The notes beneath the pieces were generated by a model, which was given only the letters and a program-made list of their open reading frames with translations, searched no databases and was not told where the DNA came from. Of a stretch of DNA of 64,000 nt, positions 16,987 through 19,774 are shown piece by piece. Position numbers and translations under genes: made by a program. The stretch is taken from the IMG/VR virus record IMGVR_UViG_3300020433_000671, positions 11,491 to 75,490 of that record, one strand, 5' to 3'. The DNA comes from a virus. Position 1 is the first letter of the stretch. Every line of letters begins with the position of its first letter.

Positions 16987-17079
16987 TCATACATTATAGA
17001 AATCTTAAATGGTATACGCCGTACATTTATCATACGGATATAAACACCTATATAGTCTTAGGTAACAATGTCAAGTGGC

Positions 17080-17580
17080 ATGAAAAAATTTATTCCTTTT
17101 ATTATGCTTGCATCGGTTGGTGCTTTGATAAACCCAGTAAGGGCAGACATTACATCTAGATTTGCTTCAAGTGTACAACTAAGTGTTGGAGGTGCTCATA
17201 CAACAGCTGAGAGAATTGGATCTTCGTATTCAATTTCTGGTTCTAATATTGACACTACCGATGGAACAACTGCTGGTACAGTGTCTGCTGGCACTATAGC
17301 ATCAGGTGTTTATTCGCCTGGAACTATTGCAGCAACACAGGACACTGCTGGTGCAGCATTCAGCTTCACTCAGTCATACACTCAAGCTGACGCTATTCCA
17401 GGTAATGCTGTAACAGTTGGTGCATCACAAAACTTTGGTGATATATCAAGTGTTGCTGCTGGTACTACTGGTGATCTTGCTGGTCAAGTTACTAGTGCTC
17501 ACACTTTTGCTAGTGTCTCTGCTGGTGGTGCTAATACTACAGCTACAACTCAGTTCGTAACAGAGCTAACTATAAAATAG
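17080..17580 (+). CDS. Secreted Thr/Ser/Gly/Ala-rich beta protein (subunit A of the envelope locus)
   Basis: Sec signal MKKFIPFIMLASVGALINPVRA; contains GAAFSFTQSY. Confidence 0.8.
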   Translation: MKKFIPFIMLASVGALINPVRADITSRFASSVQLSVGGAHTTAERIGSSYSISGSNIDTTDGTTAGTVSAGTIASGVYSPGTIAATQDTAGAAFSFTQSYTQADAIPGNAVTVGASQNFGDISSVAAGTTGDLAGQVTSAHTFASVSAGGANTTATTQFVTELTIK

Positions 17581-17590
17581 GTGATTAAGG

Positions 17591-18055
17591 ATGAATAAAT
17601 TTATCCTATTATTCTTATTATTAATTCCGTCTAAAACTCTTGCAGTGCCTGTGGTCCCCAATTTCCAACAGGGAAGTATGACTAGCCATACAGAAACTGA
17701 AAGCACTATAACGGAAACCATAAATTCAGTAGATTATAGAACAGGATGGGAATACAGCGTGACTGGGGTAGGCGTTTCCAACAATGGAGAGCCACTCAAC
17801 CCCAATGTGAATACATCAACAGTGACTATAGATCCAAGCGTAGGATCAGGAGAGGGAGCAATCACAGGGAGCGTAACATCTTCCTTCGATGCTTTAGATC
17901 TCTCCAGTCAAAGCAAGTACACAATGACAACTCCAGGTGCAGCGTTTCAATTTACCCAGAGTTATCAAGGACCAGGTATGACAAATCAAACTCTCATACA
18001 GAGAACAACAGTAATAGAGTCCGTCACGGACACAACAAGCGTGTTTACCCAATAA
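17591..18055 (+). CDS. Secreted Thr-rich beta protein (subunit B, paralogue of A)
   Basis: Sec signal MNKFILLFLLLIPSKTLA; contains GAAFQFTQSY. Confidence 0.8.
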   Translation: MNKFILLFLLLIPSKTLAVPVVPNFQQGSMTSHTETESTITETINSVDYRTGWEYSVTGVGVSNNGEPLNPNVNTSTVTIDPSVGSGEGAITGSVTSSFDALDLSSQSKYTMTTPGAAFQFTQSYQGPGMTNQTLIQRTTVIESVTDTTSVFTQ

Positions 18056-19074
18056 AAGCATTATGTCTATCTGCTCTGAGTGTGGTCATTACTGCCCCTG
18101 TGAATGCACAAGGTGTAGGGGGTGTGAGTGCAACCGCAAATCCAATCGCTAATAGTTCGGGCTCGGTCACGAACCAGGCAATACAAGTTTTACAAGGTCC
18201 ATACGTAACTAACACCTATGGTGGTGGTGTATCGTGTCAGGGTACGACCCTCAATATGACACCATACATCCAATTTGCTGACTCAAGGAAAGACCCTTGG
18301 GAAGATTTCTATAACGAACCACAATACAATACTACTGATATCAGTGGTACAATGACTCCTACCTATGTTACTGTCAAGAATTATCCTTGGGAGGATTGGT
18401 ACGATGATAGAACTTATACTAATGCTGCTGGTGAAGAAGTAAGGTGGTTCCCAGATGGATCAGACATTACTATCATTGAAGATATAGATGGTCCTAATGG
18501 TGTACCAGATATAGTTGACACTGGTGGAGAGATGACCCCATCATGGTTTAAACCTGTGCGTACAGACATGAAGGCAAATCAAAGTTTTAACGTAGGTCTT
18601 TCTGCTACACTTTCTATACCATTGAACAGAGGTATGCAAAGGAGGTGTAGAGAGGCAGCAGAGGCACAGACAGCATCTGTTGTGCAGTTGACTGCTAATA
18701 AAAGATTAGACTTTGAGATTGCTCGTCTTAAAAATTGTGGTGAACTCATGAAGGCTGGTATCATGTTCCATCCTAAATCACCCTATGCATCTATATGTGC
18801 TGACGTAGTTGTTACTGCACCTGGTGGACAAATTATTCCACACGAACACCAGATACCTCAACCAAAATGGACTAACCCTTCTTCTTCAGAGGGGGTAGAC
18901 CTTTCTTCTCTCGGTAACGGTTCGTCTGTATCTCCGATAAAGTTGGACGGTAAGGTTTCTTCCCAAGAATCTTCTGAACTTTCGCAATCGTCTTCTTCAC
19001 AACAGGTTTCACAACCTTCAGGAGCAGATCTGCTAGGGGTTTGGCAAATAGGGCACTCGCTGTCGCCACAGTAG
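18052..19074 (+). CDS. Secreted putative outer-membrane protein (subunit C); probable ATA start
   Basis: The signal-like IKALCLSALSVVITAPVNA begins at ATA 18052, overlapping the TAA of B. Amphipathic NVGLSATLSIPL is followed by helices with Cys residues. Confidence 0.7.
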   Translation: MKALCLSALSVVITAPVNAQGVGGVSATANPIANSSGSVTNQAIQVLQGPYVTNTYGGGVSCQGTTLNMTPYIQFADSRKDPWEDFYNEPQYNTTDISGTMTPTYVTVKNYPWEDWYDDRTYTNAAGEEVRWFPDGSDITIIEDIDGPNGVPDIVDTGGEMTPSWFKPVRTDMKANQSFNVGLSATLSIPLNRGMQRRCREAAEAQTASVVQLTANKRLDFEIARLKNCGELMKAGIMFHPKSPYASICADVVVTAPGGQIIPHEHQIPQPKWTNPSSSEGVDLSSLGNGSSVSPIKLDGKVSSQESSELSQSSSSQQVSQPSGADLLGVWQIGHSLSPQ

Positions 19075-19774
19075 CAATTGTCGCAGTGGTTGTTACCACT
19101 CCTACTGATGGTAGGTACTGATCCATGATAGGGACAGGTTCCCAGATAGTCTCACAAATTTTACCATCAGGTGTTAGTTTATATTCTTTTACTTGCTCAT
19201 CACCTTTCTGATTTCTATCACCTATACGTCTTGCATTCTTAGGAGGACATTCGACTTCTTTAGGAATCTGACCATCTGTAGGTGGTGGGGGAGGTGGTGA
19301 TGGTGCCTCTATAGGTTCTTGTTCTTGTGTATCAACACCTTCATCACCTTTTTCTGGTTCGGTATTAATTGTTTGCCAAAATAATTCTCTAGCATCATAG
19401 TCTGCTGGTAAGTATGAAGGCATACCAGCATCACATAATGTAGTAGTTGCTTTAGGATCATCATTCACAAGGTTTTTATTCCTTGATGGATCCTTCTTAG
19501 CATTCTCTTTGTGTACTTCTACACAACCAGGCATATTAACAATAGGTGTACCAGCATTAACAGTGACTGGTACATCTATTGGTACTGCTTGTGGGGGATT
19601 AACTAACCACTCACGTGTTTCACGTATATTAATATCCCTTATATCAGCAACAAAATTATCACGAATACCTATGGTCTCAGTGCCAATCAAAGGTATTCCT
19701 GTTCCGTTGACTGTTATGTCAGGTATATCAAGTCCACGGATAGTAATATTAGGTACATTATGAATAGGATCCAT
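18872..19774 (-). CDS. Pro-rich protein with a C-terminal hydrophobic segment and basic tail
   Basis: PSPPPPPP linker, Cys pairs, VVTTTATIATVATASALFA, then a Lys-rich tail. Confidence 0.75.
   Translation of the reverse strand: MDPIHNVPNITIRGLDIPDITVNGTGIPLIGTETIGIRDNFVADIRDINIRETREWLVNPPQAVPIDVPVTVNAGTPIVNMPGCVEVHKENAKKDPSRNKNLVNDDPKATTTLCDAGMPSYLPADYDARELFWQTINTEPEKGDEGVDTQEQEPIEAPSPPPPPPTDGQIPKEVECPPKNARRIGDRNQKGDEQVKEYKLTPDGKICETIWEPVPIMDQYLPSVGVVTTTATIATVATASALFAKPLADLLLKVVKPVVKKTIAKVQKILGKKPYRPTLSEIQTNRYREKKGLPPLKKKG

Follow-up and report, generated by a model that had tools for sequence, protein, structure and literature searches.

Genomic context of the cassette

The stretch of DNA analysed here (the window, 64,000 nucleotides) is part of a 75.5-kb IMG/VR virus record (IMGVR_UViG_3300020433_000671). 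Its genes lie almost exclusively on the minus strand, and three adjacent genes, referred to below as A, B and C, form a short island on the plus strand (Table 1). The closest named relative is Prochlorococcus phage P-SSM7, with 83.5% nucleotide identity over the region, and the cassette is embedded among T4-like cyanomyovirus genes, namely those for DNA polymerase gp43, Hsp20, RegA and gp62. Small membrane-protein genes adjoin the cassette, and its neighbours belong to no known family.

Table 1. Features of the A-B-C cassette, with positions counted from the first base of the window
Feature	Position	Strand	Remarks
Promoter candidate, sigma-70-like (TTATCA-18-TATAGT)	17027..17056	+	upstream of A; 9/12 matches; holds CTATATAG box
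Gene A, predicted exported beta-rich protein	17068..17580	+	phrog_564, T4-GC 237; likelier start ATG 17080 (MKKFIPF...)
Core of A aligning with B in hhalign	17218..17385	+	...RIGSSYSISGSNI ... TAGAAFSFTQSYTQ; mature residues ~21-80
Gene B, predicted exported beta-rich protein	17591..18055	+	Pfam DUF6322, phrog_650, T4-GC 236; full-length family member
Core of B aligning with A in hhalign	17732..17971	+	...YRTGWEYSVTGVGV ... TPGAAFQFTQSYQG; mature residues ~30-109
Gene C, third gene of the cassette	17746..19074	+	phrog_848, T4-GC 235; frame open back to ATG 17746 inside B

The second of the two possible starts of A is the likelier one, because most of its homologues are 164-166 aa long. All three proteins have hydrophobic N-termini which end in signal-peptidase-type sites (VRA/D in A, TLA/V in B and VNA/Q in C, the slash marking the cleavage point). 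The signal peptide of A ends in NPVRA/DITS, leaving a mature protein encoded by 17146-17577, and that of B ends in KTLA/VPVVPNF, leaving a mature protein encoded by 17645-18052. The N-terminal sequences show A and B to carry a predicted cleavable Sec-type signal peptide, and an extracytoplasmic location of both proteins is highly probable on these grounds. In the A proteins of the siphovirus clade described below, a Cys-x8-Cys pair has been gained, as would be expected in an oxidising compartment.

Distribution among cyanophages

For the analyses of protein families, we assembled a sample of 218 loci, which fall into three clades, the P-SSM7-like myoviruses, the Syn30-like myoviruses and the MED4-117-like phages. 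In 206 of these loci, from all three clades, A, B and C are all present and keep the same order. Approximately 400 GenBank phage records contain the cassette, all of them Synechococcus or Prochlorococcus phages or marine single-cell virus assemblies, and more than 580 IMG/VR stretches code for a relative of the MED4-117 B protein. In Syn9, the three genes are gp167, gp166 and gp165, and in P-SSM2 they are PSSM2_242, PSSM2_241 and PSSM2_240, corresponding to T4-GC 237, 236 and 235. The cassette is also carried by MED4-117, a lambda-like siphovirus with a genome of 38.8 kb (NC_020857, 24190-26965). Its presence in both T4-like cyanomyoviruses and a lambda-like cyanosiphovirus shows that it is transferred as a unit between phages with unrelated backbones, and, since A and B are both found in all clades, the duplication that gave rise to them predates this spread.

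In MED4-117, the cassette lies beside homologues of the flanking membrane proteins, one a protein of 79 aa with two transmembrane segments and a Lys-rich tail, the other a C-terminally anchored protein of 215 aa. The record of this phage has no annotated endolysin, holin or spanin, and the module may belong to a lysis or envelope system that has so far escaped recognition.

A scan of 185,579 genomes, one per prokaryotic species, returned ten contigs, eight of them from metagenome-assembled genomes (MAGs) and two from a Prochlorococcus single-cell assembly and a Nonlabens isolate assembly. The labels of the MAGs include Formosa, Euryarchaeota, Gammaproteobacteria, Lewinella and Bacteroidetes, and the isolate contig is a 188-kb contig of Nonlabens xiamenensis. 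These contigs probably represent cyanophage DNA, either mis-binned or present as a contaminant, and no cellular homologues of the cassette were found in the scan. Searching the literature, we found no mention of DUF6322 or of the P-SSM2 and P-SSM7 locus tags.

The region upstream of A varies among loci. Sigma-70-like sites are no more numerous here than in shuffled sequences, and the box ACCTATAT is present in 26 of the 58 clade-1 loci. In many myovirus loci, a conserved box, ACCTATATAGT or CATATAGTA, precedes A by 10-25 bases (17040-17056 in the window), and other loci carry GCTAAATA or TATAAATA in its place. This box could be a -10 element or a variant of the T4-type late promoter; across the loci, the sigma-70-like site and the CTATATAG box are inconsistent, with some loci carrying TATAAATA, and do not single out one promoter class, early or late.

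Paralogy of A and B

It had been proposed from the sequence of the window that A and B are hidden paralogues, and the short strings on which this proposal was built are indeed found in both reading frames, with YS(I/V)(S/T)G followed by GAAFxFTQSY in the same order. Pairwise BLASTP of A against B yields a single match, the 15-residue GAAFxFTQSY block (E 3e-4), and family profiles were therefore used for the comparison, built after the signal peptides had been cut off and the sequences dereplicated. The A and B profiles align in hhalign with a probability of 90.7% (E 1.2e-6) over 59-64 columns, which contain both motifs in order and run from RIGSSYSISG to GAAFSFTQSYTQ in A and from YRTGWEYSVTG to GAAFQFTQSYQG in B. 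Deepening the B alignment to 47 sequences raises the probability to 93.5% (E 2.4e-7). Compared with a score of 42.8 for the real profiles, a reversed B profile scored 10.8 (E 0.52), and the best of 40 column-shuffled B profiles scored 14.8 (E 0.13).

Matches to curated models point in the same direction. B matches Pfam DUF6322 (PF19847) over the whole 100-position profile with 125.2 bits (E 1.7e-36; cut-off 30.6 bits). A reaches 16.5-17.6 bits against the same model (E 0.013), the upper value being obtained in a six-frame scan of its own record, and stays below the gathering cut-off. It matches phrog_650, the family of B, with an E-value of 0.0099 over the same stretch, residues 50-107. The precomputed table of the collection lists PF19847.5 for homologues of A, at a threshold which is not stated there. 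Given the significant hhalign match, the clean controls and the weak matches of A to the Pfam and PHROG models of B, we conclude that A and B are almost certainly ancient duplicates of one exported beta-rich protein, with DUF6322 representing the B branch. Because A falls below the Pfam threshold, the link between the two lies outside the curated family and holds at the superfamily level only. The proposal of paralogy is thus correct, as judged from the profiles, and is a modest advance, B being already a Pfam domain of unknown function and A its divergent sister family. C is not a third paralogue by the same kind of comparison (E 0.24 and 0.45).

Homology is detected over the N-terminal two thirds, namely residues 1-80 of mature A and 11-109 of mature B. 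Past the FTQSY motif, A is about 40 residues longer than B, and the C-terminal strands of the two proteins have no sequence alignment in the profile comparison. Hence, for the C-terminal thirds, a shared design with a terminal strand is a matter of structure prediction and not of homology.

Predicted structure and conservation

The long terminal strands that had been noticed in both proteins reappear in AlphaFold2 models. For mature B, modelled from an alignment of 47 rows (mean pLDDT 77, pTM 0.45), strands of approximately 25 residues each at 9-32 and 111-135 surround four short strands. The model of mature A is poor (pLDDT 58), with its terminal strands, 2-14 and 131-143, being the best part (pLDDT 77-81). 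In the hhalign register, the predicted order of elements common to A and B is the N-terminal strand, the YS.SG strand, a variable middle, the AFxFT strand and the C-terminal strand. Together, the analyses show A and B to share one layout. It opens with a conserved long N-terminal strand and a YS(I/V)(S/T)G strand; the middle is variable and contains insertions and deletions, and after it come a GxAFxF(T/S)(Q/E)SY strand and, at the C-terminus, another long conserved strand.

Conservation follows this layout. In B, the majority residue accounts for a fraction of 0.66-0.80 at the termini and 0.38-0.48 in the gapped middle, and A shows the same trend, so that the pattern is the reverse of that in a globular protein. 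Even in members with only 26-50% identity, B shows hardly any variation at its mature N-terminus (xPVVPNFxxG) and in its last residues (SxFxQ); F-x-Q always ends the protein, and Gln is invariably the final residue. The last residue of A is K. Judging by the secondary-structure string alone, the N-terminal strand of B should pair with the C-terminal one and, since the first enters the core and the second leaves it, the two invariant ends of B should meet at the far tip of the resulting ribbon.

Neither face of the long strands of A and B is clearly hydrophobic, both being polar; there is thus no obvious packing surface, and the lack of a hydrophobic face argues against a membrane barrel. That A and B might be small outer-membrane beta-barrels or porins is hinted at by the name 'OMP1 protein', which homologues of A bear in several GenBank records and in UniRef, by the mature size of about 140 aa, equal to that of 8-stranded barrels, and by the location of the cassette near the phosphate-uptake gene pstS in several phages. 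Yet A and B match no outer-membrane protein family in Pfam or NCBIfam, the AlphaFold2 prediction is a ribbon instead of a barrel, and the strands are not amphipathic, contain few aromatic residues and end in a non-aromatic residue in both proteins (K and Q). We therefore reject the barrel reading as scarcely credible, and the 'OMP1 protein' label of A as unsupported.

Searches with the models place the two proteins near no known fold. Foldseek against the PDB gave no matches for the A model and none at E <=0.001 for the B model, whose weak matches begin at E >=0.011, and alignment of the B model with 48,161 representative chains by VIA-align reached a best Z of 2.7, which is no fold match. In BFVD, Foldseek found only uncharacterised phage proteins for B, mostly from cyanophages or marine phages, and the ESM Atlas offered no usable match for B and, for C, only the viral clusters of the protein itself. 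The weak structural neighbours of B are mostly the pores of lysenin, anthrax PA and aerolysin, phi29-type tail tubes and spore-appendage fibres, which, as neighbours of a predicted model, indicate no more than a long two-stranded ribbon.

Searches for related families

Among sequence families, Pfam, PHROGs, NCBIfam and PADLOC assign A, B and C to three uncharacterised families only, and profile searches of PDB sequences with the three alignments returned artefacts or nothing. As for chaperone-usher pilins, no pilin, usher or chaperone families were matched in the locus by Pfam or PHROGs, and a chain of a FimD complex appeared in Foldseek at E 2.6 only; a lacking fold match does not by itself speak against this family.

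The original prediction had compared A and B, in logic, to the major and minor subunits of curli. In its strong form, this reading would make the pair a secreted amyloid, with B as the nucleator, like CsgB, and A as the polymerising subunit, like CsgA, while C would be a secretion or assembly factor. Two small secreted beta-rich paralogues do adjoin a third secreted protein, and the VPVVPNFQQG of B resembles the GVVPQYGGG of mature CsgA at the same position after the cleavage site. But A and B have no curlin repeats (no match to Pfam Curlin_rpt at E <=1) and no beta-solenoid in the AlphaFold2 prediction. The hhalign comparison of B with Escherichia coli CsgA gives a probability of 4.7% (E 0.0086), which derives from the signal peptide and the VVPNF/VVPQY likeness, so that homology to curli was rejected. 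C resembles neither CsgF (E 0.23) nor CsgG (hhalign probability 1.6%) and lacks a lipobox. A curli-like system is accordingly extremely unlikely. Of the original prediction as a whole, the paralogy at profile level and the long terminal strands, as predicted, stand; profile similarity was found and no compact globular monomer is predicted, so that neither of the two outcomes named as speaking against it was observed. A division into a major and a minor subunit of a polymer would be a hypothesis, and the analogy with curli found no homology support.

Searching 1.84 billion representative sequences with the B profile recovered 326 relatives, three of which are multi-repeat proteins with TQ ester-bond domains (E 2e-18 to 2e-15). 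These matches raise the question of whether the core of A and B is a diverged TQ-type Ig-like domain, the Thr-Gln ester-bond domain of Gram-positive adhesin stalks, which would make A and B stalk-like surface proteins. The motif xGxEYxVSG...LNPxV occurs at equivalent positions, residues 22-88 of B and 24-86 of the TQ repeat. Against this, the E-values are sums over 5-7 repeats, and designed WD40 repeat proteins in the PDB match the same profile; such whole-protein values, which range from 1e-8 to 1e-18 for the profile of this short Thr/Ser-rich beta domain against the TQ-domain adhesins and the designed WD40 proteins (PDB entry 7bie and its relatives), arise because many individually insignificant repeat matches are added up, which calls for caution in similar searches. 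A single TQ domain is matched with an hhalign probability of 5.2% (B against the repeat alignment, E 0.0075) and A matches TQ with E 0.33, so that homology is unproven. Neither A nor B matches Pfam TQ (PF18202), the catalytic motif HxDxxDxxQ and a conserved His are absent from the B alignments, and there is no such structure among the fold matches listed. Position 13 of B is Thr throughout an alignment of 24 sequences and is occupied by other residues in distant members of the deeper alignment. A TQ-type core is, on balance, very unlikely.

Gene C and its probable overlap with gene B

The signal-like segment of C begins at 18052, overlapping the stop codon of B (B/C junction at 18052-18055), and the mature protein would begin at about 18109 (VNA/QGVGGVSATANP). 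Mature C (18109-18870) has four invariant Cys residues and, towards the end of the core, an invariant PHxH; it also contains a variable insertion of 0-100 residues rich in acidic and aromatic residues. We found no relative of C in Pfam, NCBIfam or PDB sequences, and no lipobox. Its conserved core ends at about residue 250, with the PHxH motif, and a Ser-rich, poorly conserved tail follows, which overlaps by about 200 bases (18872-19074) the 3' end of a convergent minus-strand gene at 18872-19774. The overlap with the convergent gene is annotated likewise in P-SSM2 and P-SSM7.

The frame of C is -1 relative to that of B in 210 of 211 loci. At the start of its signal segment, ATG, GTG or TTG is absent in most of the 179 distinct junctions, the exception being a GTGA overlap with the stop codon of B in four of them. 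An ATA start was considered and rejected, since many loci have GTA at this position and, in two clades, the signal peptide would be only 13-14 residues long; a -1 frameshift was likewise rejected, no conserved slippery heptamer being present in the overlap. What is conserved is the openness of the -1 frame itself, which is free of stop codons for 46-121 codons back into B at every locus in the three clades. Given the amino acids of B and the local codon usage, the chance of such an open frame is approximately 1.7e-4, 0.03 and 0.02 in the three clades. Inside the overlap, a third-position T is never found where it would create a stop, and its frequency in the 5' part of B and in gene A is the expected one. 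The synonymous sites of B are variable within the overlap, indicating that the -1 frame is kept open and that its sequence is not conserved.

Each clade retains an in-frame start codon upstream of the signal segment, at -102 to -105 in clade 1 (ATG), at -54 to -58 in clade 2 (ATG) and at -45 in clade 3 (ATG in 48 of 50 loci and GTG in the other two). Because stops are kept out of the -1 frame and each clade has preserved an upstream ATG, the overlap of B and C is likely to be real, with translation of C from the upstream AUG. The product would then carry, in front of the hydrophobic segment, a leader of 45-105 residues that is basic and poorly conserved. This reading fits the annotations of Syn9 and P-SSM7. 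Across cyanophage genomes, the junction is annotated inconsistently, as overlapping genes in some and with C following B in others; in P-SSM7 (NC_015290, 3687-5185), B is not annotated and C is called from the ATG inside B (PSSM7_171, 446 aa).

Proposed role of the cassette

Taken as a whole, the best explanation in our view, to which we give about an even chance, is that A and B are exported paralogues which act as partner subunits docking through their terminal strands. During infection, A, B and C would be exported to the periplasm or outer envelope of the cyanobacterium, where A and B would dock via their conserved terminal strands, arranged side by side as an approximately 25-residue ribbon in the model of B. 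Their variable middles would stay exposed, and C would serve as an accessory or anchoring component. The product might be an open-ended polymer, a closed oligomer or a heterodimer on a target in the host envelope. Judged by itself, assembly through the terminal strands is a plausible but tentative proposal. That A and B form a true fibre or tube, as the original prediction had it, is unlikely. The full picture, in which A and B co-assemble in infected Prochlorococcus or Synechococcus as an extracytoplasmic fibre or barrel-like stalk with exposed heads, and C, made from the overlapping frame, is an assembly or anchoring factor, is more doubtful still.

Elongated single-layer beta sheets can be stable as monomers, as in OspA and the G5-E repeats of SasG. 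A and B may accordingly be paralogous but separate rod-like monomers of the periplasm or surface, which might bind or mask a component of the host envelope, for example in superinfection exclusion or receptor modification, with no polymer made by the phage. Self-assembly is not required by any of the data, the ribbon is polar on both faces, a variable middle between conserved ends resembles a surface under diversifying pressure, and the cassette lies among genes for envelope membrane proteins. On the other hand, conservation is highest at the extreme termini, which lie at the far end of the predicted ribbon, a pattern more in keeping with docking than with a free end, and the strict co-occurrence of A, B and C suggests joint action. 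We regard separate monomers as a rather improbable, if serious, alternative to partner subunits.

The cassette is found in most sequenced T4-like marine cyanophages and in the abundant MED4-117-like group, and all three of its proteins are listed as hypothetical. Recognising A and B as duplicates of one design reduces three unknowns to two, and the conserved terminal strands around a variable middle provide a concrete and testable picture of partner subunits outside the cytoplasm. If the proteins do build a structure in the host envelope, the cassette would bear on how viruses of such ecological dominance remodel the wall of the cyanobacterial cell or open it, and their co-assembly would represent a new kind of virus-built envelope structure common to unrelated cyanophage lineages. 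If there is no such structure, the outcome would be a modest refinement of annotation.

Relation to known systems

Several known systems resemble the cassette in part. With CsgA and CsgB, A and B share a logic, that of paired small secreted beta-rich paralogues, and the VVP(N/Q)(F/Y) motif directly after the signal peptide; unlike curli, they have no curlin repeats and no significant profile similarity, and the cassette contains no relatives of CsgG, CsgE or CsgF. The TQ domains of Cpe0147-type adhesins (PF18202) have the xGxEYxVSG...LNP motif at the same relative position, whereas B has conserved neither the catalytic motif nor the Thr/Gln pair, and there is no structural match among the matches listed. 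The stems of beta-pore-forming toxins (lysenin, anthrax PA and aerolysin) and the phi29-type tail tubes (phi29 and Andhra) share with the B model a very long two-stranded ribbon, which in those systems joins an oligomeric barrel. However, the comparison is limited to Z <=2.7 and Foldseek rmsd values of 20-40 A, and the ribbon of B is formed by the two termini and not by an internal hairpin, and is not amphipathic. The direct counterparts of the cassette are the catalogue entries DUF6322, PHROG 650 and 564, and T4-GC 236 and 237, which are listed without a function and whose genes follow the same A-B-C order in P-SSM2, P-SSM7 and Syn9.
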